Below are positions 19,585 through 47,770 of a stretch of DNA of 49,008 nucleotides, piece after piece. The stretch's first letter is position 1. Every line of letters starts with the position of its first letter. Source of the DNA: an uncultured bacterium (GTDB taxonomy: Bacteria > Macinerneyibacteriota > Macinerneyibacteria > Macinerneyibacteriales > DSCS01); contig CAZGIO010000001.1 in assembly GCA_964525975.1 (NCBI GenBank), forward strand, positions 1 to 49,008, written 5' to 3'. Position numbers and translations under genes: made by a program. A model generated the notes under the pieces. The model was not told where the DNA came from. It searched no databases and saw nothing but the letters and a program-made list of their open reading frames with translations.

Positions 19585-19657
19585 AAAGAGGGCATTTTTT
19601 CCCAAAAGATGGCTTGAAAAATATAACCATTTATCCATAATTGTAATGGAGGTTTAT

Positions 19658-20827
19658 ATGATCATAGCCATCGTGGACGATAACAGCGACAATCGCAAAT
19701 ATCTGGCCACACTCATAAAAAACAATAGTGAACATACACTGGTCCTTTCTGAATCAGGGCAAAGTTTTCTTGAATACCTGAAAAAAGAGGGATCTGATAC
19801 TCCTGATCTTGTGCTTCTTGATATCATGCTGCCGGGTATGAGCGGATTTGAAGTCGCCGAGCACATAAGAGGAGATTCTTCCACCGAGGATATGACCATT
19901 ATTTTTATAACAGCTCTTACAGACAGAGACAGCATCAAGGAAGCCTTTGACATCGGCGGTGATGATTATATTTCAAAACCTGTTCTTAAAGAGGAGCTCA
20001 TGGGACGTATAAACGTCCACGCCAGACTCAGGGAATACACTGGACTTATCAGCAGCCAGAACAAGAACCTCAGAGAGGAAAAGGATCTTCTGAAAAAGAG
20101 GGGTCGTGAACTGAGCGGGCTTTATAAGACACTAAAACTCATGAAGGAAGAGGAATCCGCTGACAATATCATCAGGGCCATGGCAGACGATATCATCCCT
20201 GAATCACTCTCCCGCAGTGAAGACGTGATTGTAATGGTCGATTTTATGGGATCCATATATGTCACCGAGGGGATGAGAGATGAGCCGCCGGGTTATACGG
20301 TCAAGGCGCCTTTAAAGGGACGCATTGGTGATTACGGTTCTATTTCGGCGGGATATACCTCATCCTCTCAGCTTCTCCTTGACATGTTTCAACAGAAACT
20401 TATACATGCCTTTGCCAACCATCTAAGCCTCATACTGGATCAGCGTATCGCCATGATGAAAAAAAACATCAATATAAGTATCTTAAAGAAAGCAATTGAA
20501 AAACAGTCTCTTGAAGATGGGATCGTTATATTAGACAGTGAAAACTCTGTGATCTTTCATAACAGCCATTTTTTCCATCTTCTTGGCCTTGATGAAAAAA
20601 AATATCAAACAGGGGATATGAACATGATCACAAGGGATATAGTAGAAAAGATAAAAGAGAGGAAGGACCTTGTCCGTTTTGTGTCTGCTGCCCTTAAGGA
20701 GGATATGGAAGATGAGACGATCATCAAGATGGTCTCTGGAGATGATATCCGCCTTTCCATAGAACTGCTGGAAGAGCAGGGGATAGTGTACGGAAAGATA
20801 ATCATCTTGGCCGCATACACCCAGTAA
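19658..20827 (+). CDS. response regulator, REC + coiled coil + GAF-like + PAS-like, no recognisable output domain
   Basis: ATG 19658 follows GGAGG (19648-19652). REC hallmarks DD (IVDDNS), acceptor D (LVLLDIMLPG), T (ITALTD), K (YISKP). The central segment starts LSGLYKTLKL (GAF-like). The C-terminus GIVILDSENSVIFHNSHFFHLLGL is PAS-like. Confidence 0.75.
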   Translation: MIIAIVDDNSDNRKYLATLIKNNSEHTLVLSESGQSFLEYLKKEGSDTPDLVLLDIMLPGMSGFEVAEHIRGDSSTEDMTIIFITALTDRDSIKEAFDIGGDDYISKPVLKEELMGRINVHARLREYTGLISSQNKNLREEKDLLKKRGRELSGLYKTLKLMKEEESADNIIRAMADDIIPESLSRSEDVIVMVDFMGSIYVTEGMRDEPPGYTVKAPLKGRIGDYGSISAGYTSSSQLLLDMFQQKLIHAFANHLSLILDQRIAMMKKNINISILKKAIEKQSLEDGIVILDSENSVIFHNSHFFHLLGLDEKKYQTGDMNMITRDIVEKIKERKDLVRFVSAALKEDMEDETIIKMVSGDDIRLSIELLEEQGIVYGKIIILAAYTQ

Positions 20828-20836
20828 GGAGAGATT

Positions 20837-22099
20837 TTGGATAAATGCATTCTTATTGTGGAAAATTTTAAAGAGGACCAGAAGATACTCTCCTCGATCA
20901 TTGAAAACAATACATCATTGAAAGCCATAACCGCCGCAGACACAGATCTGGCGCTGGAGATGTTTGAAGTGGAGATGTTCAAGACAAAGAAGTTCTCCAC
21001 CCCTGAGATCATCGTCATCGACGTCATACTCCCTGGAAAAGACGGCTTCGAACTGGCTTCAGCCTTTTCAAAACGCGATGACACCAAACATATACCTGTG
21101 CTCTTCATCGTCTCCGCCAATGACATCAACAATAAGAAGAAGATCTTCAAATTCGGAGGCAGGGATTACATCGAAAAACCCTTTGTGATGGAGGAAGTCC
21201 TCACCAGGATCGATGTACAGCTGAACTATAAAAAGATGAAAGACGAGCTTCTGATCAAAAACGAACTCCTTGAGGACAATGAAAAACTGCTTGTGAGCAG
21301 GGGTAAAGAGGTTAAAGGGCTGCTGGAACTCCTGAAAGTGCTGGATTCAGACATATCTGCAGATGAAGCGCTGCAGACTATAACACGGAGGATAATCCCG
21401 GATTACCTTCAGTATCCCGACCGCACATACTGTGAGATAGAAGTTGACAAGAAAGTCTATTCAAATTTCACAAACGTCTATTCATCCAATAATTTTTCCC
21501 TCATCGTACCCATAAGATGGGGCGGAGCAGAGAGGGGAAGCCTTAAAGTAGGTTATGAAAAAAACGAAGGAAAACTTCTCTCGAATTTTGAGAAAAGGAT
21601 GATGGCAATATATGCATTCAACATAGCACATCTTATGGAGCGCCGTGAAGTGATGCGTACCAGGGACAGGAACAGTTCGGTGATCACGGCTACGCTGGAC
21701 GCCTACAGAGACGGCATACTCATCATGTCCAACACAGGAGAACTGCAGTACAATGACAGATTTATCGATATATGGGGATTGAGCAAGGAGATACTCACAT
21801 CTTACAACAGCAAAAAACTCCTTTCCGAGATGAGAAACAAGATGTCAGACCCCGATAAGTTTGATGGGATCATAAAACACGACGAAACAAACAAAGACGG
21901 ACGGCACGGACTGATCCCGTTTAAAGACGGCAGATCATTCATACTGAATACAAAGACAATACAAAGCCAGGGAGACACGGTCTTTTATGTCTGGAACTTT
22001 CATGACGTGACCCTGGAAGTAAAGCTTAAGAAAGAGATCCAATCTTTGAAGGAGAAAAACAACCAGATAGAGAATCTTTTAAACAAAAGAAACTTATAA
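20837..22099 (+). CDS. response regulator paralogue, REC (degenerate acidic pocket) + coiled coil + GAF-like + PAS-like
   Basis: TTG start after AAGGAGAG. Same architecture as the upstream gene (VKGLLELLKVL...; GILIMSNTGELQYNDRFIDIWGL). REC has E-N (LIVENF) in place of D-D but keeps the acceptor D (IIVIDVILPG), S and K. Confidence 0.72.
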   Translation: MDKCILIVENFKEDQKILSSIIENNTSLKAITAADTDLALEMFEVEMFKTKKFSTPEIIVIDVILPGKDGFELASAFSKRDDTKHIPVLFIVSANDINNKKKIFKFGGRDYIEKPFVMEEVLTRIDVQLNYKKMKDELLIKNELLEDNEKLLVSRGKEVKGLLELLKVLDSDISADEALQTITRRIIPDYLQYPDRTYCEIEVDKKVYSNFTNVYSSNNFSLIVPIRWGGAERGSLKVGYEKNEGKLLSNFEKRMMAIYAFNIAHLMERREVMRTRDRNSSVITATLDAYRDGILIMSNTGELQYNDRFIDIWGLSKEILTSYNSKKLLSEMRNKMSDPDKFDGIIKHDETNKDGRHGLIPFKDGRSFILNTKTIQSQGDTVFYVWNFHDVTLEVKLKKEIQSLKEKNNQIENLLNKRNL

Positions 22100-26397: not shown

Positions 26398-27651
26398 CTA
26401 TAATATCTTTGCCGCTATGGATGCCAGGCGGCTTCTCTCGCTTTTTTTCAGCAGCACATGACCGTAGATCTCTTCACCCTTGAACCTGTCGATCAGATAG
26501 GTGAGCCCGTTGGACGATTCATCCAGATATGGATTATCGATCTGATACGGGTCTCCTGTGAGTATGATCTTGCTTTTCTCTCCGGCTCTGCTCACAATGG
26601 TCTTTATCTCATGTGGCGTAAGGTTCTGAGATTCATCGATTATAATAAATTGTGATGATATGCTCCTCCCTCTGATAAATGTAAGGGCTTCGAGCTCAAT
26701 GATATCTGAATCCTGAAAATATATCCTGTTTTTTTTCCCCAGATCATTTCTGTCGATGAGAAAATCCAGGTTGTCAAAGACAGGTTCCATCCAGTTTTCA
26801 AGTTTATTTTCTTTTGAGCCCGGAAGATATCCTATATCCTTGCCCACAGGCATGATAGGCCGCATTATCAGGACTTTTTTATATTTTTGCTCTTCTGTGA
26901 CCTTATGAAGTCCTGCGGCTATTGCGAGAAGTGTCTTGCCTGTCCCCGCCTGTCCCACAAGTGTCACAAGTTGAATATCATCATCAAGCAGCAGTTCAAG
27001 TGAACAGACCTGCTCAGTATTCAATCCCCTTATTCCCCATGGCTCTATCTCAGTAAACTTAAGAGGTTCCACTTTGCCGCTGTTTTTATTGAACCTTCCT
27101 TCTATATTCCCGCTTTTATTATCCACAACAAACTGGTTGTGATACAGAGTCTCGGAGTTTTTCCGCCCTCTTTTAATTTTTTTTTCAGCCATGCCGTCGT
27201 ACAAGACGTCAAAATCGACTTTTTCATGTTCATAATCCTCAGCCGCGATGGAAAGAGCTTCTGATTTCACCCTTGCGTTGATATCCATGGATACAAAAGT
27301 CACGTTCTCATACCCCTGTTCCTTGAGATATTTCGCCGCCATTATTATCCTGTTATCGGGATTGTTCTTTCCGAACCCCTCGGGGAGTGCTGTGTCAAAA
27401 TCTATAAGTATGCGAAGAGACCCGCCGTTATTATTGAGGGCTACTCCTTTTATGATATCTCCTGTGTGACGCAGGTCATCAATACTCCTGATGACCTTCC
27501 TCGCATTGCGCCCTTTTTCAGAAAGATCGGCTTTAAAATGATCCAGCTCTTCCAGGACATCCACGGGAATACATACTACATTTTCCTTAAAATTAAAAAT
27601 AGAACCGGGGTCATGGAGAAGAACATTTGTATCCACTACAAAATGTTTCAT
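26398..27651 (-). CDS. PIN-domain + PhoH-like ATPase (PhoH2 / YlaK-type)
   Basis: 417 aa. N-terminal PIN (VVDTNVLLHDP...). PhoH Walker A GQAGTGKT and Walker B IIIDESQN. Confidence 0.88.
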   Translation of the reverse strand: MKHFVVDTNVLLHDPGSIFNFKENVVCIPVDVLEELDHFKADLSEKGRNARKVIRSIDDLRHTGDIIKGVALNNNGGSLRILIDFDTALPEGFGKNNPDNRIIMAAKYLKEQGYENVTFVSMDINARVKSEALSIAAEDYEHEKVDFDVLYDGMAEKKIKRGRKNSETLYHNQFVVDNKSGNIEGRFNKNSGKVEPLKFTEIEPWGIRGLNTEQVCSLELLLDDDIQLVTLVGQAGTGKTLLAIAAGLHKVTEEQKYKKVLIMRPIMPVGKDIGYLPGSKENKLENWMEPVFDNLDFLIDRNDLGKKNRIYFQDSDIIELEALTFIRGRSISSQFIIIDESQNLTPHEIKTIVSRAGEKSKIILTGDPYQIDNPYLDESSNGLTYLIDRFKGEEIYGHVLLKKSERSRLASIAAKIL

Positions 27652-35000: not shown

Positions 35001-35995
35001 AGTTGGTTTATACATGATGATGCAAACAGGTATTTTTCTTTTTCCGGCCTTTCTGAACCTGCGATCTCTTCGCTGAGCAGTATTACTTCACCGGGATCAT
35101 CACTTTTATCCAGCAATGCTATATAGTGGTATATGGTTGAAAACCCCTTTCTCATGTCATCCACGGGCACCATACTCACTGTTTTGCCGTCGGTATAAAG
35201 GATCATGTCTCCCTTAATATCAAATGTGGTCATTCCTGCCTTATAAAATATTATCTCTTCCTTCTCTCCGTCATTATATATGACAAAGGGGTGGTCCTGC
35301 AGGTCAGCTGTGCCGTTTCCGTCTGTATCCACGGGATAACTGATATAATAGACGCCTGGTCTTGTCCCGTCACTCCTCAGGGAGTGTTTTTCGCTTTTTT
35401 GAGAGGGTATCATCCTGGGTGTTCCATCATCGAATTTGTAAAGGTTATTCTTGTCTCCAATAATATAGATCCCGCCGTCTGTTCCCCAGCAGATTTCTTT
35501 TCCCCCCATGATCTCAAATTCTTCACTGCGTCTTTCATCGATCCCTTCAATTTTCAGGAGAGTCATATCATCTTCTCGTGTGAGATAGGCCAGATCAGGC
35601 CATCTCAATACAGGGGAGATCTCTTCCACAAAAGTACTGCCGACGCTCCCTTTTCTGCCGTTCCCCTCATAACGGATATTACTTCTCACATCATCCTGGT
35701 TTGTCTGATATATAACCATTCCTCCTGAGACCGAGGAAAGTATCTCATCATATGAAGTCGAGGCAAGGGGATCTTCAGACCCGTCAGCGGGATCTTTTTT
35801 GTAAATATTATAATTATTTCCCTCATATACTGTATAATAGACCATTCCATCCCGGTCATCAAAATAACAGTTGATTATGGGGTCTATACGGACGGCTACC
35901 TTCGACGCTTCCTGAAACCGGATCGTCCGTTTTTCCACCGCTGCGCATGAAAAAAGGAATACCGCTGAGATTATAAGAGTGATCTTCTTAATCAT
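29057..35995 (-). CDS. giant lipoprotein: PD40/TolB-like propeller region + very long TPR array + C-terminal CHAT (caspase-like) protease domain
   Basis: ATG 35995 overlaps the upstream stop (ATGA). Signal peptide and lipobox MIKKITLIISAVFLFSC. Many TPR-like hairpins. CHAT hallmarks are HLACHG (His codon 29462-29464), VVLSACESG (Cys codon 29327-29329), SSLWRISD and PRYWGAMKF. The ORF track starts at TTG 36007 (2316 aa). Confidence 0.85.
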   Translation of the reverse strand: MIKKITLIISAVFLFSCAAVEKRTIRFQEASKVAVRIDPIINCYFDDRDGMVYYTVYEGNNYNIYKKDPADGSEDPLASTSYDEILSSVSGGMVIYQTNQDDVRSNIRYEGNGRKGSVGSTFVEEISPVLRWPDLAYLTREDDMTLLKIEGIDERRSEEFEIMGGKEICWGTDGGIYIIGDKNNLYKFDDGTPRMIPSQKSEKHSLRSDGTRPGVYYISYPVDTDGNGTADLQDHPFVIYNDGEKEEIIFYKAGMTTFDIKGDMILYTDGKTVSMVPVDDMRKGFSTIYHYIALLDKSDDPGEVILLSEEIAGSERPEKEKYLFASSCINQLLEKESRALSDMIKKKFMDTLEADSPFRSMLSKYNSDTAVEGLMEGGEDENLMWNRLYVARDDIESYQRLYSRYYKRLRNRRIKNSADYLLAVLRLENRDETGAYDILVRMLNSTLTPGDTEYEALDLLLKNKGRYTDRAGYSINIMEGYIRDSRQCEFLRAGAAAAVMETLALFDDAQGAVDEGEKIFSEIRETEPRNLIYEKMLEIYRNEENMDGVEYFAHIIQEGYNGRLYYEMVDYVREKGLLKAEKNIESGDMLQARKSLLTVRSVISGDLTVNREIIKLEYSLGNIIKTAGQYKSRYLSMEKDADSIYLYGYALSYAGTYYGLKGKKEQEAAAYRRSLELIRNAMSLSPQEPYFYLTAGWLEERLEQLGEGKFLEMALVDYKTGLGLSYSNILKGYFKKNMANVYFKLKLYDQALDSFLSSSRLVSQYGNKNEQLDYFLKMSQIYYNLEDYDKAIEYDHGLYTLYSEQGDKGGMDFIHRHRGLLYSLKTEYLKAVKEFESGLRISGEKISRDDEIIYLRNIAYNALMGEDEEKAIQAAQKLINIIGETEDGKSSGGLLNINVDVSIGGKGDSSAYLGFSHDMEKELAFTILARAHEKTGDYDRASYYYEIKLKRSRNKFGDMVIFNNLANLYFKSGMETFAVKYLDKSLDMAVKEGFERGYIMNRLSTVFLKREAGKKTMDELDEMAEDVEALGGGRLKDLYKMIYIYMVHRSGEEVKQGLDFNDAMAAVEKNMRQMERARIYLQELSRDHSSPLMQRLRLLYLYDSDGREIKEDLLALTGEDKFADFIIFSDLAYLYSRSHEKSVEYLSESLSSAESLTSSNMHKIYYYHMNRPDYYPGIVQSVAENVSKDKVINLLARYDALFERALFIIFKPDLSSQFDTVNINNYFYYKDKGKRKLSEYYLDKLNPEARNLTGLMSVTLDDVKKCLTGGRVLYYRMKDKYLRITSDGCSVASEVEGRAPYIVDRKGEDHVGGSYFFSTLQQFILFFNNRFMMSPVEEGDQESIFTYNSGTYSFQIEGEEQINPYKTVFWEGLDMGEILAKGLTLDGIKLESAAPLGSTTKRLMGDVMLYNGTGYLDINGYLSSYGEMSSGETGDYIEAWKTVLSKNAYIYMKEGLYQRAFRELKRLISLLKVSNDKKALADYTYRLIKIASDNMHDPSLIEDELKLYLSLRGNSSEPVYYDRLSRLYEKNGYYTKALEYMERTGGTDPMREAQLYEKLGEFQSALKLYDAVDTEEALLGKAVIHYKYFKEYRSAEQTLEDITKPGLEEMKRLTYALIKSDMGSNDEAIKMFNELEGSSDKKIRVNSALGRATAYYRKYLYIKTAVEAENIAEEAKRSGLIDEYLGALNLKALALIESGAYDTSLAVFEEAIKLAEQYNIINQITVLKINKAKVLRKQGDFPEALDILNALRDEYEEKENRYILDGILRNLGKTYYLTGDLEKAERSFNAVSHMPDGEEGVEMMMYKGLIHGDRKLLEKAMTAAEKNNYLMKRLEIAAKTGMLFNDRALLASCAEIIGSLVSEQSENVLKIMLFIQYRDVYEKLIGMYFNEGAYHEALSLMEMIKRASSFVNNLTIPSSLLDGDEKKAVSGLLSEMKDAAALSEKDAWNLNVLRNKRKAYDKLKMSLFFRHGKSDEDLLRGVDLDMRDSCLYLSFYTDTTSRMIYIISGFRGEYTGAVLDMDDVSGRIDRFMEAVTSKNSASELELLGHEIYSWIPGGVPEDAVKIIISTHWKFTYIPFSVLWDGNEHLVDGHMVKYVTDLGAKRGETGQNKDAILALGNPDLGDERLELYFAQKEAGEIKFLFPEGTDLFKGKEATETAVKDTLSKKRFSIIHLACHGRFNRTIPELSYLMLSGDGKEDGFLYVDEIKALDVSSDLVVLSACESGTGILGEGGEVQALDKAFLSGDVGHVISSLWRISDVATGVLFKYIYRNLYQGMDMDTAYWHAVIELKKRFPEPRYWGAMKFTSSMMQ

Positions 35996-36549
35996 TTTTT
36001 CTGCCAATCTCCTTTAGATATTTCTATCAACCAGCCCTTTTCAGCCTCTTCTCTGAATTTTTTTGCGAATATTTCTCTTACTTTTTCCATATCGGTACTG
36101 CTTAATCCTTCAGTCACAGACAATATCCTCTGAAATATTATCTCCCTGTCCCTGTTCTCTTCTTCTATGAACCTTCGAACAAACCGGTGTAGTTCGCTGT
36201 CCCGTGCAAGTCTTTCACTATCCGCCACTGCGACCCTGCCGTTCCATGATTCGCCGATTATTCCCATGTCCATGAACCTTCGATAATCGTCTTCATTATA
36301 TTTCCGGTTCTGATATGCAAGAAACGCTCTTTTTCTGCCGTCGCTTATTAATGAGATATCATCGGGCATGGTCCGAATGGACACCAGGAGCAGTTCATCA
36401 TTGCCTATGAAATCATAATTTCCGATGACCTGGTTTTCCAGTGATGTCTTTTCACCCACAAGGTTTATCTCGATCTTTGCTTTTGGGGAAAGAAGTGAAC
36501 AGCTGAACAAGAAAAATGCACAGGTGGACAGAATAAAAATTTTTCTCAT
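35992..36549 (-). CDS. lipoprotein, YdbL/DUF1318-like
   Basis: 185 aa. Signal peptide and lipobox MRKIFILSTCAFFLFSC. Segments GIIGESWNGRVAV and FIEEENRDREIIFQRI resemble the conserved G-x-GE...G and eN-x-dR motifs I recall for DUF1318. Position is downstream of a YdbH-like gene. Confidence 0.5.
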   Translation of the reverse strand: MRKIFILSTCAFFLFSCSLLSPKAKIEINLVGEKTSLENQVIGNYDFIGNDELLLVSIRTMPDDISLISDGRKRAFLAYQNRKYNEDDYRRFMDMGIIGESWNGRVAVADSERLARDSELHRFVRRFIEEENRDREIIFQRILSVTEGLSSTDMEKVREIFAKKFREEAEKGWLIEISKGDWQKK

Positions 36550-36562
36550 ATTTTGCCGCCTT

Positions 36563-37021
36563 TCAGAAATTTATGTTTTTTTCCTTCAGCAACGCCTGAA
36601 GGGGGATCCTCCTGATGGGCTCCACCTGGACGTTGCCGATAATAAATCCCAGAAAAAAGGATGCTATATTTGATCGTCTGAACCCGAATTCCGGTATAAT
36701 GTCAATATATCCGTTGGATACTTTTACCATGATATTTTTCGGCACGACACCCACCATATTCATCTTTTTTCTCATATCCCTCATCTGCGGGTTGTTTCCG
36801 TCGGGATCCATTGAAAGTATTGCTTTGTCGACAACATCCTTGTCTATCCTCGTTATATCGCAAAAGCCTGATATATCGTCACCCTTCAGCTCAAAACGGG
36901 TGACAAAGGAGAGCAGAGACCTTCCTTTTTTACCCGTCCCTTTTCTGATATTCAGATCGATTGCGTTCAGGGAAAAACGGTAATCCTTGTTCTCCAGGTC
37001 CGCGTACACTTCTCCGCCCAT
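36563..37021 (-). CDS. C-terminal fragment of the AsmA/YdbH-like protein (separate frame; the frame is open back to 37063)
   Basis: 152-aa ORF overlapping the 3' end of the 698-aa ORF by 55 nt in the -1 frame. No SD before its ATG. The peptide stays protein-like upstream of its ATG (GKQTFLDGQMGGEVY...). Confidence 0.5.
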   Translation of the reverse strand: MGGEVYADLENKDYRFSLNAIDLNIRKGTGKKGRSLLSFVTRFELKGDDISGFCDITRIDKDVVDKAILSMDPDGNNPQMRDMRKKMNMVGVVPKNIMVKVSNGYIDIIPEFGFRRSNIASFFLGFIIGNVQVEPIRRIPLQALLKEKNINF

Positions 37022-39063
37022 CTGACCGTCGAGAAACGTCTGTTTACCGCACTTAGCTCCGCGTCAAGATCCTCGACTGAATATTGATTATAGTCGGCTT
37101 TTTCCATAGATATCCTGTATCCTCCGGCTTGTTCATCGCCGGGGCTCCTTTTATTGCTGAAAAAATATGGTATGGAAAGAGAAAGCCCCCTGAACTTCAG
37201 ATCATCCATCTTTCCTTCTTCGATCCTGCAGTCCAATACTGCCTTAAAATCGTCTTTTGTCCCGTCAAACCATATCTCCCCGTCAATACCCGATAAGGCA
37301 GCGCCGTTTCCCCTGTAACTTATGTGGTCCAGGTGATTTTCCGAACTGATCTTCAGCTCCTCCAATGTCCCAGACGCTTCCATATTGAAACTCACAGTCC
37401 CTGAAAGCTCTGCTCCGTCCAGGGCTGAATATGAACTTCCTATATCATTAAGGTCTATACGTGAATCTGAAAGTGTTATATCCACAGCTCTCCGGCCCAG
37501 GTCATCTATATAGCCGTCTATCTTAAACCTGTTATTATCACCGCTTTTTATTACAAGTTCATTGAAATAAAGGAACCTTCGTTCCAGTTCCATGATAATA
37601 TTACCGGTAAAACTGACACTGTCTGCGGCCAGTTTTTCTTTTCCCATGCGCATATCGATATTTTCCCCTTTAAGATCAAAATCCATGGAAATATCTTTAC
37701 TGCTGCTGCCTGATACTTTGATATCACCGTTAAACTTGGCGTAAAGCGGTATGTCAAAATAGTTGAGGAAAGTCATATCTTTCATAGAGATATCATATTC
37801 ATGCTCAGAGAGTCCTTTTGTGTATCCCTGCAGTTTGAACTGGCCGCCGTAGCTCTTAAATCCCATGTAGCCGACTTTTATCTCGCTTACTTCGGTGAAA
37901 TCATCCACCCTGGCCTCGGCTTCAATCCTGAAATCAGTGAGCTTTGTGCCCGTCTGGTTTATAGTGATATTATCCAGCGCCAGATCAAGCGCTGCGGTTA
38001 CACGCTCCTTTGTCCCTTCCGCGTCGAGTCGAGCCCGTCCGTCCAGAGAAAGCATATCCGTTTCAAACCGCATCTCCTTCAGGTCCATCCTGCATGAGAA
38101 ACTGTCTTCTTCAGCATCTCCATTCAACGTGATCGTCCCGGAGATCCTTCCTGGGATCTCTCCCTTTACTGCGTCATTCACAAGTTCCAGGGTCTCAGCC
38201 AGATCTATCTCTGCGTTCATCTCACGAATATCATATGATGATATACCATACGTCTCATCAAAAGTCACTGATCCGCTTAACTCAGCCAATGGCAGACGTT
38301 CCCCGTCCAGCCTCACCCGCCGTATATCCAGACTTCTTTTTTCAGTGGACATCACCAGATCAATAAGCAGCGAGATATCCCCCACTTTATCCTTTTCGGA
38401 TATCTCTGCCGAAGCATTTAAACCGATGGAACCGTTTTCTTCCCGCGCTCCGATGTTGAGGACAAAAGGTATTTCCAGCCTTGTTTCCTTCCATGAGAGA
38501 AGCAGATCGCTGCTCCCGGCGAATGTCATGTCAAACTGCATGTTTTCCAACCCGCCCCCGCCATGATTTATGGAAAGGCCCATGTTGTAACCGCCGGTCT
38601 TTATCTCCATATCTTCCTGTATATAAGACACGGCGAGCCCTTTCAAAGAAAGATATCTTATCTCAAAGGGAGGAATATCACCGCTTCCACGTGATATTTC
38701 ACCTTCTCTATTCTTTTCCCGGCTTTCTTCCTGCAAAGAGATGGTTATATGGGGGTCTATGACCTCTATTTTATTGATTACAGGTTTAAATTTAATCAGG
38801 GATGCAGGTGATACAGAAAGACTCGCTTTTTCACATGCAAGCGCTATCCCGTCCCTGCTGTACTCTATCTCCTTAATTGTGATATTCCAGGGTAAAAACG
38901 CCGATATTTTAATACTTTCAAGCCCCGGCACCCTGGAGACCATGAGGTCTTCACCTGCCTTGGAAGATATAAACAGAGATAATATGAGGAATATAAGCGA
39001 CACCGCCGCTGCTGTCACCGCGGCGGCGCGCAAACATTTGATGAATAACTTATTTTTAAACAT
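36967..39063 (-). CDS. AsmA-family / YdbH-like envelope-spanning protein, N-terminal 698 aa (apparently frameshifted near its 3' end)
   Basis: N-terminal TM anchor AAVTAAAVSLIFLILSLFISS, followed by a long beta-rich repetitive region typical of AsmA/TamB/YdbH-like proteins. The last ~24 aa (RRFSTVRWAEKCTRTWRTRITVFP) look like out-of-frame sequence. Confidence 0.55.
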   Translation of the reverse strand: MFKNKLFIKCLRAAAVTAAAVSLIFLILSLFISSKAGEDLMVSRVPGLESIKISAFLPWNITIKEIEYSRDGIALACEKASLSVSPASLIKFKPVINKIEVIDPHITISLQEESREKNREGEISRGSGDIPPFEIRYLSLKGLAVSYIQEDMEIKTGGYNMGLSINHGGGGLENMQFDMTFAGSSDLLLSWKETRLEIPFVLNIGAREENGSIGLNASAEISEKDKVGDISLLIDLVMSTEKRSLDIRRVRLDGERLPLAELSGSVTFDETYGISSYDIREMNAEIDLAETLELVNDAVKGEIPGRISGTITLNGDAEEDSFSCRMDLKEMRFETDMLSLDGRARLDAEGTKERVTAALDLALDNITINQTGTKLTDFRIEAEARVDDFTEVSEIKVGYMGFKSYGGQFKLQGYTKGLSEHEYDISMKDMTFLNYFDIPLYAKFNGDIKVSGSSSKDISMDFDLKGENIDMRMGKEKLAADSVSFTGNIIMELERRFLYFNELVIKSGDNNRFKIDGYIDDLGRRAVDITLSDSRIDLNDIGSSYSALDGAELSGTVSFNMEASGTLEELKISSENHLDHISYRGNGAALSGIDGEIWFDGTKDDFKAVLDCRIEEGKMDDLKFRGLSLSIPYFFSNKRSPGDEQAGGYRISMEKADYNQYSVEDLDAELSAVNRRFSTVRWAEKCTRTWRTRITVFP

Positions 39064-43859: not shown

Positions 43860-43921
43860 GGCATACCTCCGTTCAAGGCCGTTTAATTACTTGAAAATCA
43901 TACCATAACACGCTTTTCATG

Positions 43922-46900
43922 TCAATGAGACGTATCATACAGCAGCACAAATGGGCGGTCTCCACCGGCCCTTATCCGTGTGGCTGTCTTGACGGAGACA
44001 ACAGCCCCCTCTTTTTCCCTCAGATATGAAAATATTACCTCAGGGCAGGTTCCGTTCCCGAAACCTTTTAGCGAGAGTATAGAGTATGGTATTTCTTCAT
44101 CCCCTGTCACCGCAAGCCCCAGTTCGCCTCCTGTAAATTCAGCCCAGTCATGGGCATCGATCGTTGATACTATCAGAGCCGCCACACCTTCTTTTTCAGC
44201 CTCTTCCATGATGGTCAGGGTAAGTTTCCCTTCATAAAAACCCACTGCGCCCTCTCTATCCCAACTTCCAGGTTTATATTCATACAACCTGCCGAAGATA
44301 TTTTTACCGAAAGCAATGGATCCCGAGATCTTATCACCCTCGGCTTTCAGGTATAGGTCGGTCTCATCATGTATGGATGAGATCTTACCACGCGCCCATG
44401 CATGGAAATCCACTTCCCTGTTCTGATATTCTATGGTCACCTCACCTGTCTTCCTGTCGATGGAAGTGATTATCCCGGGTCCCGGCGCCTTCAGCCGGTC
44501 ATATTCACGCATATAAAGGGTAGACTGAGTCAGAGAAAGCAGATGCACACCCTTTTCAACATAATCACCCTTGCGGTACTGCAGCATCCCCTCCACTGAA
44601 CGGGGCCGCACTCCACATAATTCCGCCACTGGTATGACCATGGGTTCCCTGGAATAATGGAGCTCCTCCTCTAAGACGATCATCCCCGTCTCCTCGATCA
44701 CCTTCACCACACCGCTTATGGTAGAACGCACCTTCTCACGTCTCCCTGCGATGACACCGTTGAAGATAATATCTCCCGTTGTCACTTTATCTCCCTTTTT
44801 CACCACGACGCCCGCAGCGGCTTCTTCTGAGGATATATTGTCCGCGATCCCTTTAAGTCTGCGTCTTATATCTATGATATAGATCCGCGGAGGCATCTTC
44901 ATGGCGGTGCCTATCTTCTGACCGCATTCCACGATATCACCTTTCTTCACATGCATGATGCCGCGAAACGGCAGCGAGATGGACAACTCTTCCTCCACAT
45001 TTTTTTCCAAGACAGGATCCGCTCCTTCCACGGCTGCTTCATAGTCGCTGTCTGTGGCAAACATCCTCAGATGTTCAGACAGCATGGTGCCGTCATACTG
45101 TTTTTCACGTCCTCTGCAGTCGATGAGAAGAGGCAGGCTTGTATCCACTTCGATCTCTTTCCTGTTTTTATATATCTCGCTTCCCTTCTCAGCTATGATC
45201 TTAGCTTTGAGTCCCCTGGGGTAATAGAGCACTTCTCCCCACCGCACCTGAGCTGATATTGAGTCATCGATTTCTGTAAGCTTCAACACATTCCTGCCTT
45301 TTGTGTATTTTCCCGAGGGAGCCACCACCATGCCCACCTTTTTCAACACTTCATCCCTGTAGACTTCATAGGCTTTTTCCTTGTCCACAGCTGCGAACAA
45401 TCCCATGTGAGGAGATCGGAACCCCCGGTCATACATTATATTGCTGATACCTGAAGGGAGAAAAGCGTCTGCCAGCATGAGAAATATGGATTCCTCGTCG
45501 CCTGTATGTGATATAACACCACCTGATCCCACATAAGTATCAATATCTGTTAGTTGAAAAATCTTATCCTCCGATTCCATATAAAGCAGGGACATAAATT
45601 TATCCCGTTCCTTATCATCACGCAACTTCTCAAGGAAACCTACCCTTTTTTCCCTGAAGGACATCTCCATATGCTGTTTCCACGCTTCACGGATCCCCGC
45701 CACAGCCAAAGCGCGTTCCACAGCTATCTCATTTTTTTTCACAGGTATATATCCGGGGGTTATCATCTTGCTGTATACATATTCCCGGATATAAGGACTG
45801 TTCATCCCTGTCATGAGCGATATCTTCTCCACACCTTCGGTTTCCAGTATCTTACCCAGGGAATAACTCATCCCCAGGTGAGCAGCTACTGTCCTGCTGT
45901 ATTCACCGATTATATTGGAGTAAATATCTGTGGTCGCTCCTCCTATGTCTGCGAGAGCGATGTTTTTCCTCTCATGTTCTCCATACAGAGACAATATGCG
46001 CTCCACCCCCGCAGGGGTGGGCATGAGGTTTCCCGAAGTCCATTTTTTGATCCTGGAATATCCCGGGGCTCTTTCCATGACTTTTTCAAGGAATATCTCC
46101 CGGATCCTGCGCTTTGCGGGAAACATGTTCATGGTCTCCAGGTCAGGCCTTATGTTTTCCACGGTCTCCACCTCAAACTGATCACCCAGGGTCTCTTTTA
46201 CTGTCTCGGCAGCGGCACTGTTCCCTGCATATATTACAGGAAGCTTTCCCGTATGCTTCGCTGAAGGACTTGAGAGTGACAATATCTCAGCAAGTCTTAT
46301 CACCGATATTACATTCCCCCCCTCCACGCCGCCGGAAAACAGCACCATATCCGCTGATACCCTCTTCATATTCAGTATCCTCTGGACTACTGGCATCTCA
46401 TCATCGATGGTATATGTCCTTATGATGACTCCTCCTGCCCCATTAGCTGTCATCTCAGCGACCAGACCTGTATCAGTGGATGAGACGCCGAAAACAATGA
46501 TCTGCAGTCCTCCTCCAGCTGAGCTTGTTGCCATAATCGGTATCACCGGCGCGTTGTTCTGAACCAGCTTCCTGCCGTAAGCACCTCCCAGTTCTTCCAT
46601 TGCGTCTATAACTCCCCTGGATACATCGTTTCCTCCTGAGACCGCTGTTGTGGGCACATAAGACTCTGCTTTAATTACAAAGAGGCCTTTATCGTCTTTT
46701 TCAAGGAGCATGGCTTTTGTCGCTGTACTGCCTATATCAATCAGAGCAAAAATATTGCCGTTTCCCACATCAAAATACTTTTCGTCCCAGAAAAGGTCGT
46801 CCAGTGTGGATTCCAAAGCCCTGGCAATAGACATGCATACTTTAAGGGACGGATTAAAGCGTTCGCTTTCTATGAGAGCTATAGTCTGCCTGCTGATACC

Positions 46901-46972
46901 TGTCTTTTCAGCAAGCTGAGCCTGGCTCAGTTTCATTGCTTTTCTTCTGATTTTAACATTCAGACCAAACAT
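43922..46972 (-). CDS. multidomain fusion: XRE-type HTH + GlmL/MutL-family (glutamate mutase L-like, actin-fold) ATPase + ~470-aa C-terminal region with repeated barrel-sandwich (lipoyl-like) hairpins
   Basis: AAGGAGG SD. aa 1-65 match XRE HTH (KLSQAQLAEKTGISRQTIALIESERFNP). aa ~75-545 carry GlmL/MutL hallmarks LIDIGSTATKA, ATSSAGGGL, LFSGGVEGGN, PVIYAGN, MPTPAGV, ADIGGATTDIYS. The C-terminus has KKGDIVECGQKIG, KKGDKVTTGDIIF and RKGDYVEKGVHLL. Confidence 0.75.
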   Translation of the reverse strand: MFGLNVKIRRKAMKLSQAQLAEKTGISRQTIALIESERFNPSLKVCMSIARALESTLDDLFWDEKYFDVGNGNIFALIDIGSTATKAMLLEKDDKGLFVIKAESYVPTTAVSGGNDVSRGVIDAMEELGGAYGRKLVQNNAPVIPIMATSSAGGGLQIIVFGVSSTDTGLVAEMTANGAGGVIIRTYTIDDEMPVVQRILNMKRVSADMVLFSGGVEGGNVISVIRLAEILSLSSPSAKHTGKLPVIYAGNSAAAETVKETLGDQFEVETVENIRPDLETMNMFPAKRRIREIFLEKVMERAPGYSRIKKWTSGNLMPTPAGVERILSLYGEHERKNIALADIGGATTDIYSNIIGEYSRTVAAHLGMSYSLGKILETEGVEKISLMTGMNSPYIREYVYSKMITPGYIPVKKNEIAVERALAVAGIREAWKQHMEMSFREKRVGFLEKLRDDKERDKFMSLLYMESEDKIFQLTDIDTYVGSGGVISHTGDEESIFLMLADAFLPSGISNIMYDRGFRSPHMGLFAAVDKEKAYEVYRDEVLKKVGMVVAPSGKYTKGRNVLKLTEIDDSISAQVRWGEVLYYPRGLKAKIIAEKGSEIYKNRKEIEVDTSLPLLIDCRGREKQYDGTMLSEHLRMFATDSDYEAAVEGADPVLEKNVEEELSISLPFRGIMHVKKGDIVECGQKIGTAMKMPPRIYIIDIRRRLKGIADNISSEEAAAGVVVKKGDKVTTGDIIFNGVIAGRREKVRSTISGVVKVIEETGMIVLEEELHYSREPMVIPVAELCGVRPRSVEGMLQYRKGDYVEKGVHLLSLTQSTLYMREYDRLKAPGPGIITSIDRKTGEVTIEYQNREVDFHAWARGKISSIHDETDLYLKAEGDKISGSIAFGKNIFGRLYEYKPGSWDREGAVGFYEGKLTLTIMEEAEKEGVAALIVSTIDAHDWAEFTGGELGLAVTGDEEIPYSILSLKGFGNGTCPEVIFSYLREKEGAVVSVKTATRIRAGGDRPFVLLYDTSH

Positions 46973-46992
46973 TAAGACCTCCTTTTGTAAAA

Positions 46993-47015
46993 TATATTAT
47001 ACAATATATAATATA
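46993..47015. promoter_or_regulatory. perfect 9-5-9 inverted repeat, candidate operator for the HTH fusion protein
   Basis: TATATTATA-CAATA-TATAATATA. It overlaps a minus-strand TATAAT (46996-47001) located 24 nt upstream of the start codon of the HTH gene. Confidence 0.3.
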
Positions 47016-47040
47016 ATTACATTCAGCATCTATGTAAACA

Positions 47041-47068
47041 TTGAAATGTCATTTTATTTAAATATAAT
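47041..47068 (+). promoter_or_regulatory. sigma70 promoter positioned for a leaderless HAD-hydrolase mRNA
   Basis: TTGAAA (47041-47046), 16-nt spacer, TATAAT (47063-47068), then 6 nt (TGCCTT) to ATG 47075. No SD. Confidence 0.55.
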
Positions 47069-47074
47069 TGCCTT

Positions 47075-47770
47075 ATGAAATATCTTTTTCTCTTTGATAT
47101 TGACGGCACAGCCATCCTCATAAACCAGGCGGGCTCTCATGCCTTTAAAGAGGCTCTCAACCGCCTCTTCGGCTCACTTGACATGTCAGGGCTCACGCTT
47201 AAAGGACATACTGATAAATACGCCTATACAAACATATTGCTGGCCAACGGCTTTTCTCACAATACAATAGATACATATTGGGAAAGTTTCTCCTCTGAGT
47301 TCAGCGGCATACTGGAACATATCTCCCGCTGCTACACCTGGAATGAAGTACCCGGCTTTTCCGAATTCTGCAGACTCGCAGACAAAAGCGAAGATATCAC
47401 CATGGGTTACTGCACAGGTAATATGTATCATGGTGCATCAATAAAGATAAGATATGCTGGACTTCCACTTTTTGACATCGGTACTTACGGTGACCAGGGT
47501 ATGACAAAAGAGGAGATCCTGCGCAAAGCCGTCTTCGATTACGGCGCCGGATCATCTGAGGTATTCTATTTCGGCGATACTGAAGCTGATATACTCGCAT
47601 CCCATGCCTGCGGGATCAAATCCATAGCCATAGGAGGCGGTTCAACACCCTTGGACGAACTGGAAGACTTCGGCCCATTCTTATGTTTTGAGGATTACCG
47701 TCCTCTTTTAGCCCTGCCTTTTCCCCATATCCCGGGGTATCCCCTCCCGGTAGATAAGCAGCTTCCCTGA
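47075..47770 (+). CDS. HAD-superfamily hydrolase (phosphoglycolate phosphatase-like)
   Basis: 231 aa. Motif I LFDIDGTAI and motif IV FGDTEADILA. The last ~20 codons overlap the convergent TPK gene. Confidence 0.75.
   Translation: MKYLFLFDIDGTAILINQAGSHAFKEALNRLFGSLDMSGLTLKGHTDKYAYTNILLANGFSHNTIDTYWESFSSEFSGILEHISRCYTWNEVPGFSEFCRLADKSEDITMGYCTGNMYHGASIKIRYAGLPLFDIGTYGDQGMTKEEILRKAVFDYGAGSSEVFYFGDTEADILASHACGIKSIAIGGGSTPLDELEDFGPFLCFEDYRPLLALPFPHIPGYPLPVDKQLP

Follow-up and report, generated by a model that had tools for sequence, protein, structure and literature searches.

A putative autorepressing fusion of an XRE helix-turn-helix with a long MutL-like ATPase and a barrel-sandwich module in an uncultured bacterium

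Results

In a 49,008-nt stretch of contig from an uncultured bacterium (here called the window), one gene encodes an XRE-type helix-turn-helix (HTH) fused to an actin-fold (ASKHA) ATPase of the MutL/GlmL Pfam family and a long C-terminal module. By computation, we established the architecture of this protein and its place in a wider family, and we showed that a specific palindromic operator is present at a defined position upstream of the gene. The ATPase and C-terminal module together form a large, widespread, uncharacterised family that existed before the fusion, and the palindrome indicates that the window protein most likely represses its own promoter. We cautiously favor reading the protein as an autorepressing fusion of enzyme and repressor, comparable to BirA, PutA, or ROK, with the body as the presumed enzyme.

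Architecture of the fusion protein

The gene is a single uninterrupted reading frame of 1,016 codons with an ATG start, and its product is identical to P0001 of the public protein collection. About 14 sequence clusters (90% identity), drawn from independent assemblies and sources, contain the same full-length ORF, with HTH, ATPase, and C-terminal module. The full-length AlphaFold model (pLDDT, 87.5; pTM, 0.83) places a five-helix HTH, a flexible linker (residues 61 to 73), the ASKHA core, and a beta domain before a disordered linker, three beta-rich barrel units, and a beta-alpha-beta tail (Table 1); a model of residues 541 to 1016 alone had a pLDDT of 90.1. Since relatives do exist as two genes split at the linker around residues 621 to 654, we considered whether two or three genes had been falsely joined in annotation or assembly, or whether the ORF had arisen by chance. 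The continuity of the frame, the recurrence of the single-ORF architecture, the confident full-length model, and the conserved length of the HTH-to-ATPase linker leave this next to no probability, and it is effectively refuted already. The three-part domain assignment made in the initial annotation proved correct.

Table 1. Features of the fusion gene, its product, and its flanks
Feature	Position	Strand	Residues and basis
XRE-HTH / MutL-like ATPase / barrel-sandwich fusion gene	43922..46972	(-)	Complete ORF, 1,016 aa plus stop codon (ORF listing)
XRE/Cro-type helix-turn-helix, five helices	46787..46972	(-)	Residues 1-62; followed by low-confidence linker 63-73
ASKHA (actin-fold) ATPase, MutL/GlmL Pfam family	45347..46753	(-)	Residues 74-542; PF13941 match
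All-beta domain	45113..45346	(-)	Residues 543-620; strands 543-618 (full-length model)
Linker, poorly conserved, low-confidence	45011..45112	(-)	Residues 621-654; split point in two-gene relatives
Three barrel-sandwich-hybrid (lipoyl-like) units	44261..45010	(-)	Residues 655-904; KGDxVxxG hairpins
Alpha/beta tail	43925..44260	(-)	Residues 905-1016; invariant columns in 80 sequences
Ribosome-binding site AAGGAGG	46978..46984	(-)	5 nt before ATG, read from sequence
Operator box 2, 18-bp palindrome TGTATAATATATTTTACA (minus-strand reading)	46986..47003	.	Between -10 hexamer and ribosome-binding site
Degenerate operator box 1 TGTAATTATATTATATAT	47004..47021	.	Overlaps -10 hexamer; intergenic alignment
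Candidate sigma-70-type promoter: TTTACA, 17 nt, TATATT	47010..47038	(-)	Consensus scan, 10/12 matches
HAD-family hydrolase gene, divergent	47075..47770	(+)	HAD_2 match
Separate promoter-like site for kdsA-kdsD-kdsC: TTGACA, 17 nt, TATGAT, upstream TG	43897..43925	(-)	Scan, 11/12 matches

The HTH, originally placed at residues 1 to 65, was confirmed as a Cro/C1-type domain by a Pfam HTH_3 match (residues 7 to 60; E, 2.7e-14), by CylR2 as its closest solved relative (5e-8, residues 5 to 62), and by the five helices of the full-length model (residues 3 to 12, 17 to 24, 28 to 35, 43 to 52, and 57 to 61), after which pLDDT dips at residues 61 to 70. All 14 HTH forms conserve the recognition helix, S/T-RQT-I/V-x-L-I/M-E, and an NPSLK motif. 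The domain is a rare add-on, carried by 2 of the 150 best representatives. A crude NJ tree is compatible with a single gain of the HTH as well as with several.

The ATPase core matched PF13941 (MutL) almost end to end (residues 77 to 540, profile positions 3 to 448 of 450; E, 2.9e-86; 290.4 bits against a cut-off of 27), which places the central region in the MutL/GlmL Pfam family, as had been proposed, and not in EutA, FtsA, or the sugar kinases. All the motifs named at the outset were found in the order given (DIGSTATK at residue 79, SSAGGGL at 150, SGGVEGGN at 213, VIYAGN at 246, MPTP at 317, and DIGGATTD at 342), with the phosphate-1 (DIGSTATK), phosphate-2 (DIGGATTD), and adenosine (GSGGV) motifs intact. 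Among 80 family members, D79, G81, S82, T83, T85, K86, D342, G344, G345, T347, T348, D349, and G484 are invariant, and conservation reaches at least 90% at G482 and G485. Because the HTH forms keep every family-invariant residue of both the ATPase and the C-terminal region, the ATPase body of the window protein is probably still active, as judged from these residues. No solved structure of the GlmL/MutL branch was detectable by sequence. The best Foldseek matches of the core were acetophenone carboxylase (5l9w_B, 1e-10), N-methylhydantoinase, acetone carboxylase (5svc_B, 8.5e-9), and 9h03 (1.3e-9), with TM-scores of only 0.2 to 0.3 for the hydantoinase and carboxylase structures; FtsA, glycerol kinase, and the diol-dehydratase reactivase (2d0p, 6.7e-7) ranked lower.

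The all-beta domain that follows the core sits on the ATPase polypeptide in split-gene relatives. The linker behind it is poorly conserved, with 12 to 24% identity to the other HTH forms (compared with 41 to 51% in the ASKHA region, residues 74 to 542), and its pLDDT falls below 50 at positions 90 to 106 of the C-terminal model, that is, residues 630 to 646 of the protein. The three lipoyl/biotinyl-like hairpins described initially are present as KGDxVxxG sequences of the barrel-sandwich type at residues 677, 726, and 801. No column in any of the three hairpins conserves a modifiable lysine, K692 of the window protein being common to only 2 of 80 sequences, and the units are therefore not lipoyl or biotinyl carriers. 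Biotin_lipoyl (13 bits against 22.1) and NQRA_N both stayed below threshold on these units, and the RnfC_N barrel-sandwich match was marginal (residues 718 to 763; 26.0 bits against a cut-off of 25.6). Their Foldseek matches, all with low TM-scores, were the Thermus thermophilus RNA polymerase beta-prime insertion (3.5e-5), cyanobacterial Si3, domain 2 of Thermotoga maritima NusG, MexA, and BCCP.

The C-terminal tail, expected to be alpha/beta from its sequence, was indeed modelled as beta-alpha-beta, with a pLDDT of 90 to 98 over most of its length. It contains the family-invariant residues G957, E959, T998, R1001, G1003, and R1006 within the consensus ALTGDE...EGFG...GRTQIRAGVxRP, a motif found also in the 375-aa proteins of split forms, and bears a weak structural likeness to the PA domain (TMt, 0.3 to 0.4; E, 0.02 to 0.08). 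We regard the tail as a likely ligand or partner site.

A widespread family in fused and split forms

At least 596 related stretches were found in species-representative genomes, and in an alignment of 80 sequences from end to end the window protein had all the invariant columns of the long family of MutL-like ATPases with a barrel and alpha/beta module. Homologues of about 950 aa that lack the HTH span 92% of the query and come from many candidate phyla, the fused form occurring in Cloacimonadota and Fermentibacteria/Aegiribacteria. Many other phyla have the module split into proteins of about 600 and 375 aa encoded by adjacent genes. The split-form ATPases (about 600 to 620 aa) match query residues from about 79 to about 630, and the stand-alone C-terminal modules begin at profile positions of about 634 to 670, so that the break falls at the low-confidence linker. 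The split form belongs to a seven-gene cassette encoding a small protein, the ATPase, the 375-aa protein, DUF6754, and three membrane proteins; tblastn gave no match to DUF6754 or to the small protein in the window, nor in any of the fused-form loci L001 to L046.

Most members of the family carry no DNA-binding domain. Other such modules appear, from the sequences, to have been recruited independently by this ATPase: P0304 carries a fused GntR winged HTH, and a co-oriented TetR-family gene lies directly upstream in five loci. Some relatives have a Zn-ribbon N-terminus. The description of MutL proteins as stand-alone ATPases of about 460 aa was too narrow, as forms of about 600 and 950 aa are abundant, and the architecture turned out to be common only in part: the body is widespread but uncharacterised, while the HTH form is rare.

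Relation to GlmL and the B12-dependent mutases

GlmL (methylaspartate mutase accessory protein) and the ornithine-degradation protein Or-4 share the ordered ASKHA motif set and the full-length PF13941 match with the window protein, but they are about 460 aa long, compared with about 1,016 aa for a protein with a beta domain, three barrel units, a tail, and an N-terminal HTH. To our knowledge, a reactivase role has been proposed for the short GlmL/MutL forms, and the branch otherwise has no established function. We weighed a role for the window protein as a GlmL-type reactivase or chaperone, acting on a B12-dependent (or other radical) mutase whose gene lies elsewhere in the genome, with the HTH coupling expression to the pathway. 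The strong Pfam MutL match, the diol-dehydratase reactivase among the structural neighbors, and the label "glutamate mutase L" on relatives in public records all speak for it, yet it is decidedly improbable. The protein scored below the cut-offs of the GlmL equivalog NF040745 (199.6 bits against 475), of NF040744 for Or-4 (148.3 against 600), and of the GlmL subfamily TIGR01319 (147.3 against 204.05), and its extra module of about 470 aa is missing from canonical GlmL. Pfam scans of essentially all large ORFs bore out the earlier statement that the window holds no B12-binding or mutase gene, and none was noted in the Pfam annotation of the tabulated loci or in the recurrent neighbor clusters of about 85 fetched loci. 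The GlmS/GlmE, OraS/OraE, or KamD/E mutase subunits that adjoin GlmL proper were likewise not found in the window or the related loci examined, and the window protein was rejected as GlmL proper on both counts.

A conserved palindrome at the promoter

Upstream of the gene, box 2 lies 14 nt from the ATG, immediately before the ribosome-binding site. TGTA-N10-TACA occurs once in the 49-kb window against 0.40 expected, and TGTA-W10-TACA with up to one mismatch once against 0.03 expected. Box 1, degenerate in the window, aligns with the perfect palindrome TGTATATTATAATATACA of orthologues, which is palindromic at 18 of 18 positions in L088 and L089. In the orthologues L002, L088, and L089 (protein identity, about 42%), two boxes follow a conserved TTGACA, with which the window -35 box aligns, and box 1 therefore overlaps the -10 hexamer in these loci as well. 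The distant L004 has an exact TGTA-N10-TACA site, and L091, L092, and L003 have sites with one mismatch; in the Mcinerneyibacterium-like pair L003 and L090 the site is degenerate only. An exact palindrome was found upstream of 5 of 9 HTH-form genes and none of 40 HTH-less genes (Fisher, 6.6e-5), and with at most one mismatch upstream of 8 of 9 and 2 of 40, respectively (8.6e-7); the nine HTH loci include four syntenic orthologues, which brings the independent observations down to about five lineages, and the operator is AT-rich and lies within AT-rich promoter DNA, which counts against this evidence.

On computational grounds, the gene thus has the layout of an XRE regulator with a palindromic operator at the promoter that it regulates. 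Sequence-specific DNA binding, envisaged in the initial annotation, gains from this a conserved predicted operator, and the binding itself is a prediction. The fusion gene shares its 102-bp operator-containing spacer (46973 to 47074), the one singled out in the initial annotation, with the divergent HAD hydrolase gene, an arrangement kept in L002, L088, L089, and L093, and the hydrolase gene is a candidate for coregulation. At the 3' end of the ORF, a separate promoter-like site precedes the downstream kdsA-kdsD-kdsC genes; TTGAC(A/T)-17-TATGAT occurs at the same junction in L002, and TTGACT-containing equivalents occur in L088 and L089.

Discussion

We propose that, in this lineage, an XRE HTH was fused through a short flexible linker to the N terminus of a pre-existing body of ATPase and C-terminal module. 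The HTH would bind, in dimeric or higher oligomeric form, one or two of the 18-bp TGTA-N10-TACA palindromes, and because the boxes overlap the -10 region and leader of its own promoter, we infer that the protein represses its own synthesis, probably together with that of the divergent HAD hydrolase. The nucleotide, ligand, or partner state of the body would then modulate operator occupancy; both this link with the ATPase cycle and the identity of the signal are conjectural. In other lineages, the two parts of the body are separate proteins from adjacent genes and would work with membrane proteins.

The initial annotation had offered a one-component transcription factor or a DNA-anchored machine, and the predicted operator at the gene's own promoter is in keeping with a regulatory output. 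A dedicated, ROK-like one-component factor, in which the ATPase and barrels only sense a nucleotide or ligand and transcription control is the sole output, would account for the operator data equally well, and the repeated attachment of DNA-binding modules (XRE, GntR, a Zn-ribbon N-terminus, and a TetR gene directly upstream) agrees with it. We nevertheless consider it unlikely, though worth keeping in mind: since the great majority of the family lacks a DNA-binding domain, the module must have a function of its own, a five-domain sensor of 950 aa would be unusually elaborate, and the HTH forms retain all the invariant ATPase and C-terminal residues. ROK repressors typically relax their catalytic motifs. 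Still less probable, and by a wide measure, is an ATP-driven machine with DNA or the nucleoid as its target (in segregation or remodelling, for example) and the HTH as a tether to a chromosomal site. Some actin-fold ATPases do serve in segregation or in the cytoskeleton, among them FtsA, a structural match here, and the protein is large and multidomain, but the only site in 49 kb covers the gene's own promoter and leader, a classical geometry of autorepression, no partition-site-like repeat arrays were seen, and the HTH-less majority has no link to DNA, the split forms having membrane proteins as neighbors. As the module is widespread and mostly without a DNA-binding domain, we see the window protein less as a dedicated transcription factor than as an uncharacterised ATPase machine with an acquired autoregulatory HTH.

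As examined here, most of the long MutL members constitute a conserved two-part machine, fused or split, in many mostly uncultured phyla, and they are not tied to B12 mutases. In the window protein, through a rare natural fusion, this machine carries a DNA-binding domain with a clearly predictable operator, and operator binding with and without nucleotide, together with reporter repression, could reveal the ligand or state sensed and hence the function of the whole family. A bolder and rather doubtful proposal is that the long ATPase and its barrel and alpha/beta module form an ATP-driven machine of a new class, one that transduces signals or is associated with the envelope and that, in its split-operon form, has membrane partners of its own, and that the XRE-fused proteins are an unrecognised family of ASKHA-based, nucleotide-gated transcription regulators, parallel to the GntR-fused and TetR-coupled versions. 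If this were true, the window gene, with its defined operator and single polypeptide, would be the first tractable handle on a system that spans more than a dozen phyla.

Several known systems resemble the window protein in part. BirA, PutA, and NadR combine a functional body with an N-terminal DNA-binding domain and repress their own or related promoters as the state of the body dictates. The same logic would apply to the window protein, in which the body keeps its invariant residues, the operator overlaps the gene's own promoter, and coupling to body state is suggested by analogy; the bodies, however, are unrelated in sequence and fold, and the type of DNA-binding domain differs, BirA having a winged HTH and PutA a ribbon-helix-helix where the window protein has an XRE HTH. 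The ROK repressors (NagC, Mlc, and XylR) likewise join an N-terminal DNA-binding domain to an ASKHA fold in a family that also has non-DNA-binding enzymes. The analogy drawn earlier holds for this logic and for the use of another ASKHA branch (hydantoinase/GlmL-like, not sugar kinase), but for nothing beyond: there was no ROK profile among the Pfam matches at E values up to 1, the HTH is of the XRE type, and the window protein is three times as large, with its extra C-terminal module. With the window protein, a new ASKHA branch would join the short list of enzyme-repressor fusions.

The hydantoinase A, acetone carboxylase beta, and acetophenone carboxylase enzymes resemble the ATPase core in structure only. 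The Hydantoinase_A profile scored 15.0 bits against a cut-off of 22.9, Hydantoinase_B (the HyuB-type partner) was not found among the window ORFs scanned, and the C-terminal module is unrelated to these enzymes. Short XRE repressors of the CylR2 and PbsX type are small dimers that bind inverted repeats at promoters; they stand alone at about 66 aa, whereas the window HTH is the N terminus of a 1,016-aa ATPase. MocR and GabR set a precedent for the fusion of a GntR winged HTH to an enzyme fold, in their case a PLP aminotransferase fold, and P0304 carries such a winged HTH on the same ASKHA ATPase family as the window protein.

Domain organization of the protein

The features read earlier in the 1,016-aa product, from the N-terminal XRE HTH to the tail, were confirmed in full. 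The ORF listing gives one ATG-started, uninterrupted ORF of 1,016 codons (43922-46972, reverse strand) and there are about 14 clusters of HTH-bearing homologues, as expected for a single fused gene and not a mis-joined pair. Pfam placed HTH_3 at residues 7-60 (E 2.7e-14) and MutL (PF13941) at residues 77-540 (profile positions 3-448 of 450, E 2.9e-86, 290 bits). All the ATPase motifs listed in the initial annotation turned out to be present in the order claimed (DIGSTATK at residue 79, SSAGGGL at 150, SGGVEGGN at 213, VIYAGN at 246, MPTP at 317, and DIGGATTD at 342), as were the three KGDxVxxG hairpins (677, 726, and 801); an RnfC_N barrel-sandwich match at 718-763 was marginal (26.0 bits against a cut-off of 25.6). 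In a PDB sequence search, the solved structure nearest to the HTH was that of CylR2, a small repressor (5e-8), and beyond HTH and lipoyl-hairpin-level matches no solved relative of the ATPase or the C-terminal region was detectable.

AlphaFold models were based on an alignment of 80 sequences and reached a pLDDT of 87.5 and a pTM of 0.83 at full length and a pLDDT of 90.1 for residues 541-1016. The tail, described earlier as alpha/beta-looking, was modeled as beta-alpha-beta.

Features of the protein, its gene, the window, and the split-form cassette
Feature	Position	Strand	Remarks
HTH, five helices	residues 1-62		AlphaFold
Flexible linker	residues 63-73		AlphaFold
ASKHA core	residues 74-542		AlphaFold
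All-beta domain	residues 543-620		AlphaFold
Disordered linker	residues about 621-654		AlphaFold
Three beta-rich barrel units	residues 655-904		AlphaFold
Beta-alpha-beta tail	residues 905-1016		AlphaFold
18-bp palindrome TGTATAATATATTTTACA	46986-47003		Upstream of the window gene
Strong sigma-70-like promoter TTGACA-17-TATGAT, upstream TG	43897-43925	-	Overlaps last ORF codons
HAD hydrolase gene	47075-47770		Divergent from the window gene
LplA gene	18604-19584		
Two adjacent response regulators	19646-20827, 20837-22099	+	~270-300 C-terminal residues each without recognized output domain
PIN-domain/PhoH-like ATPase fusion	26398-27651	-	PhoH2-type
TPR/CHAT protein, 2,316 aa	29057-36007	-	Many TPR repeats, C-terminal CHAT protease-like domain
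DUF1318 protein	35992-36549	-	Precedes TPR/CHAT gene
152-aa ORF	36563-37021	-	No annotation; precedes TPR/CHAT gene
698-aa ORF	36967-39063	-	No Pfam family
DAHP_synth_1-family ORF, 185 aa	48340-48897	-	Profile positions 79-255 of 270
Cassette gene 1			Small protein, ~120 aa; also fused to ATPase N-terminus in P0355
Cassette gene 2			MutL-like ATPase, ~612 aa
Cassette gene 3			Barrel/PA-like protein, ~375 aa
Cassette gene 4			DUF6754 membrane protein, often with fn3 domain
Cassette gene 5			Predicted membrane protein, ~218 aa
Cassette gene 6			Predicted membrane protein, ~279 aa
Cassette gene 7			Predicted membrane protein, ~248 aa

Conservation and structural likeness

Across 80 family members, the residues of phosphate-1 (D79, G81, S82, T83, T85, and K86), phosphate-2 (D342, G344, G345, T347, T348, and D349), and the adenosine motif (G484) are invariant. 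A second invariant set, in the tail (G957, E959, T998, R1001, G1003, and R1006; consensus ALTGDE...EGFG...GRTQIRAGVxRP), suggests that the C-terminal module holds a functional site.

Foldseek, run on the core of the model as the initial annotation had proposed, placed the hydantoinase/carboxylase clade structurally nearest: the best matches were acetophenone carboxylase (5l9w_B, 1e-10), N-methylhydantoinase (9h03), and acetone carboxylase (5svc_B, 8.5e-9), followed by FtsA, glycerol kinases, and diol-dehydratase reactivase. The C-terminal region had no whole-domain analogue in the PDB by structure search. Its barrels matched sandwich-barrel-hybrid inserts (the Thermus thermophilus RNA polymerase beta-prime insertion at 3.5e-5, cyanobacterial Si3, Thermotoga maritima NusG domain 2, MexA, and BCCP), all with low TM-scores, and the tail bore a weak likeness to PA domains (TMt 0.3-0.4). 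Nothing significant was found in a viral structure library, and BLASTP detected no internal duplication among the barrel units. The idea that the barrels are lipoyl/biotinyl carriers, for which AMKM at residue 692 of the window protein and the LplA gene of the window would speak, was rejected, since the lysine is conserved in none of the three hairpins; the one in AMKM is not kept in the family.

Fused and split forms of the family

A search of 5.8 billion proteins yielded an identical protein, encoded on an NCBI contig of 49,008 nt, and the HTH-bearing clusters (35-43% identity) together with a long series of HTH-less homologues of ~915-1,060 aa covering residues ~75-1016, which come from Aegiribacteria, Fermentibacteria, Cloacimonadota, Zixibacteria, and related groups and are called, where named at all, 'glutamate mutase L' or 'TIGR01319 family'. 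Species-representative genomes contained at least 596 related stretches, the best 80 of which showed two organizations, either a single fused ORF (Cloacimonadota, Fermentibacteria/Aegiribacteria, Delongbacteria, WOR-3, and others) or two adjacent genes of ~600-620 and ~371-381 aa (Latescibacterota, Eisenbacteria, Planctomycetota, Armatimonadota, Marinimicrobia, BRC1, a Firmicute, and a Bathyarchaeote). The two-gene relatives are broken exactly where the window protein has its low-confidence linker; the ATPase and the C-terminal module are thus an ancient two-part unit, which the window protein carries in fused form.

The assignment to the GlmL/MutL type held for the Pfam MutL family but failed the cut-offs of the curated models: the protein scored 199.6 against the GlmL equivalog (cut-off, 475), 148.3 against Or-4 (600), and 147.3 against the TIGR01319 subfamily (204). 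To judge from these scores, it is not GlmL proper. Pfam scans of the window ORFs bore out the earlier remark that no B12-binding or mutase gene is present, nor was one found in the gene tables or recurrent neighbor clusters of the related loci. With its Rnf, PFOR, GlnA, MgtE, valS, and kds genes, the window is an ordinary piece of an anaerobe's chromosome. By ValRS similarity, the organism belongs to an uncultured lineage, its nearest named relatives being Aegiribacteria, Fermentibacteria, and Sabulitectum, at about 55% identity.

Some genomes hold two long MutL-like paralogues in tandem (L007:7001-12844 and L026:5770-11535). At four loci of the Aegiribacteria type (L005, L008, L010, and L012, the last labeled Fermentibacteria), the HTH-less long form is divergent from a Lyase_aromatic gene (3e-157; aromatic amino-acid lyase/aminomutase family) located about 105-200 nt upstream on the opposite strand, a pairing that may be either lineage synteny or a functional hint.

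The split-form genes belong to a conserved, co-oriented seven-gene cassette (L047-L087, e.g., L063:5445-10804 and L084:2267-8941) found in Latescibacterota, Eisenbacteria, Planctomycetota, Armatimonadota, Marinimicrobia, BRC1, and others. Within it, above-threshold Pfam models were obtained for the ATPase and DUF6754 alone and an NCBIfam model for the ATPase alone; the ~375-aa barrel protein gave only weak barrel-sandwich matches (Biotin_lipoyl and RnfC_N). The cassette looks like an undescribed membrane-associated system, and its gene content suggests that the ancestral system acted in association with the membrane. We did not carry this role over to the window protein, because the cassette partners are not nearby in the window or in the fused-form loci checked (L001-L046).

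Rarity of the HTH and other N-terminal partners

We surveyed the phyletic distribution of the architecture, another check proposed in the initial annotation, and found the HTH fusion to be rare among relatives of the ATPase. With a profile of the HTH form, HMMER searched 1.84 billion representative proteins; 2 of the best 150 matches (P0005 and P0241) began at position 1, and about 60 of the 150 were HTH-less fused forms and many were split halves. The best 80 metagenome loci contained a single HTH form, near-identical to one already found. On this ATPase the HTH is, by these counts, a rare add-on; a neighbor-joining tree neither supported nor contradicted the monophyly of the HTH forms. Two candidate HTH forms were rejected, L127 and L013 (Delongbacteria), in the latter of which the tblastn extension to residue 6 was spurious and the ORF begins at the ATPase.

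Other regulators also accompany the module. In P0304 (703 aa) a GntR winged HTH is fused to a split-type ATPase; at five Cloacimonadota-type loci a TetR-family gene on the same strand ends 1-15 nt before the long-form start or overlaps it; and in many Cloacimonadota long forms an N-terminal CxxC...CxxC Zn_ribbon_2 (PF12674) replaces the HTH (L017, L019, L021-L023, L025, L042, and L045; P0249, P0253, and P0349). Given the XRE, GntR, TetR, and Zn-ribbon cases, regulators have been coupled to the ATPase module several times independently. P0247 has a ~200-aa extension resembling a zinc finger plus a LuxR-like HTH, without Pfam support. Several of the Zn-ribbon loci have a co-oriented TetR-family gene directly upstream and a gene for a DUF5684 small membrane protein downstream. 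Further N-terminal fusions on the same ATPase are Peptidase_M1 (P0308), TSP3 repeats (P0303), and a transmembrane helix (P0316).

A putative operator specific to HTH forms

The 18-bp palindrome lies between the promoter of the window gene (TTTACA-17-TATATT) and its ribosome-binding site (AAGGAGG). TGTA-N10-TACA occurs once in the 49-kb window (0.40 expected), and for TGTA-W10-TACA with at most one mismatch this site is the only one (0.03 expected), one match being reached in 3 of 100 shuffles. In three orthologous loci (L002, L088, and L089; about 42% protein identity and synteny with the window), two neighboring boxes lie directly 3' of a conserved TTGACA. Box 1, a perfect 18/18 palindrome TGTATATTATAATATACA in L088 and L089, overlaps the -10 hexamer, and box 2 overlaps the leader. 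Of the distant HTH forms, L004 has the exact site and L091, L092, and L003 have it with one mismatch, that of L092 overlapping the -10 of a TTGACA promoter. In L004, translation of P0012 probably begins not at the annotated ATG but at a TTG located 45 nt before it (L004:7956-8000), which restores the conserved HTH N-terminus 'MFKGQRIKSLRNNLGMTQ' and brings the operator to about 22 nt from the initiation codon.

As a control, 40 HTH-less relatives were scanned over the 120 nt preceding the gene. The exact site was present in 5 of 9 HTH forms and 0 of 40 HTH-less relatives (Fisher p 6.6e-5), and with up to one mismatch in 8 of 9 and 2 of 40, respectively (p 8.6e-7); counted by independent lineage, the latter comparison was 5 of 5 to 2 of 40 (p 1.7e-5). 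The placement of the site is the geometry of autorepression. The HAD hydrolase gene shares a 102-bp spacer with the window gene and may be co-regulated with it, since their divergent arrangement is kept in the syntenic clade.

Downstream of the window gene and of its counterparts in L002, L088, L089, and L093 lie kdsA, kdsD, and kdsC. The promoter overlapping the end of the ORF would drive kdsA-kdsD-kdsC; L002 has the same element at the corresponding junction, and L088 and L089 have TTGACT-containing equivalents there. A functional link to KDO biosynthesis was discounted and the linkage treated as lineage synteny, since a conserved promoter of its own serves kdsA and the distant HTH forms are without kds neighbors.

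Proposed mechanism and alternatives

Architecture, family context, retention of the invariant residues, and the presence, position, conservation, and specificity of the operator were established computationally; from them we infer DNA binding, repression, and coupling to the state of the body. The best-supported reading is a bifunctional ATPase and autorepressor, in which the ATPase body of the family, still active, would have gained a tethered XRE HTH. Through this HTH the protein would repress its own promoter at the operator, and perhaps the divergent HAD gene too, with occupancy probably set by the nucleotide, ligand, or partner state of the body. In BirA, PutA, NadR, and the ROK repressors, operator occupancy depends on the state of the body, and the proposed behavior would resemble theirs.

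The main rival is a ROK-like one-component regulator whose body is purely a sensor. The recurrent fusions of the ATPase to DNA-binding domains favor it, but the intact catalytic set speaks against it, as does the family majority free of any DNA-binding domain. A mutase reactivase is unlikely: the protein belongs to the Pfam MutL family but falls below the GlmL cut-off, and its surroundings are free of mutase genes. Also unlikely are a DNA-anchored machine, in a family where the HTH is rare, and an annotation or assembly artefact, in view of the intact ORF and its HTH-bearing homologues. A defense role was rejected because the HTH alone matches defense-system models in PADLOC.

HTH-enzyme fusions and ASKHA-based repressors are already known, and what is new here is that known logic on a new ASKHA branch. 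The gene's own biology, autoregulation through an XRE HTH, would be conventional; its value is that, rare and well defined, it offers a way into a large uncharacterized family. In public records the architecture carries labels of a general kind, either 'helix-turn-helix domain-containing protein' or 'glutamate mutase L'. In the library covered by a full-text search, no paper dealt with the long forms, their fusion to an HTH, or DUF6754, and glutamate mutase is only listed among non-polymerizing actin-fold enzymes (PMC5597319).

Other genes in the window

At the syntenic position of the 698-aa ORF, L001 and L002 carry an unannotated gene for 838-873 aa, and the L089 gene there gives faint AsmA/TamB_N matches. 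The DAHP_synth_1-family ORF appears to be N-terminally truncated or mis-started, and its neighbor, close to the end of the contig, is a thiamin pyrophosphokinase gene.
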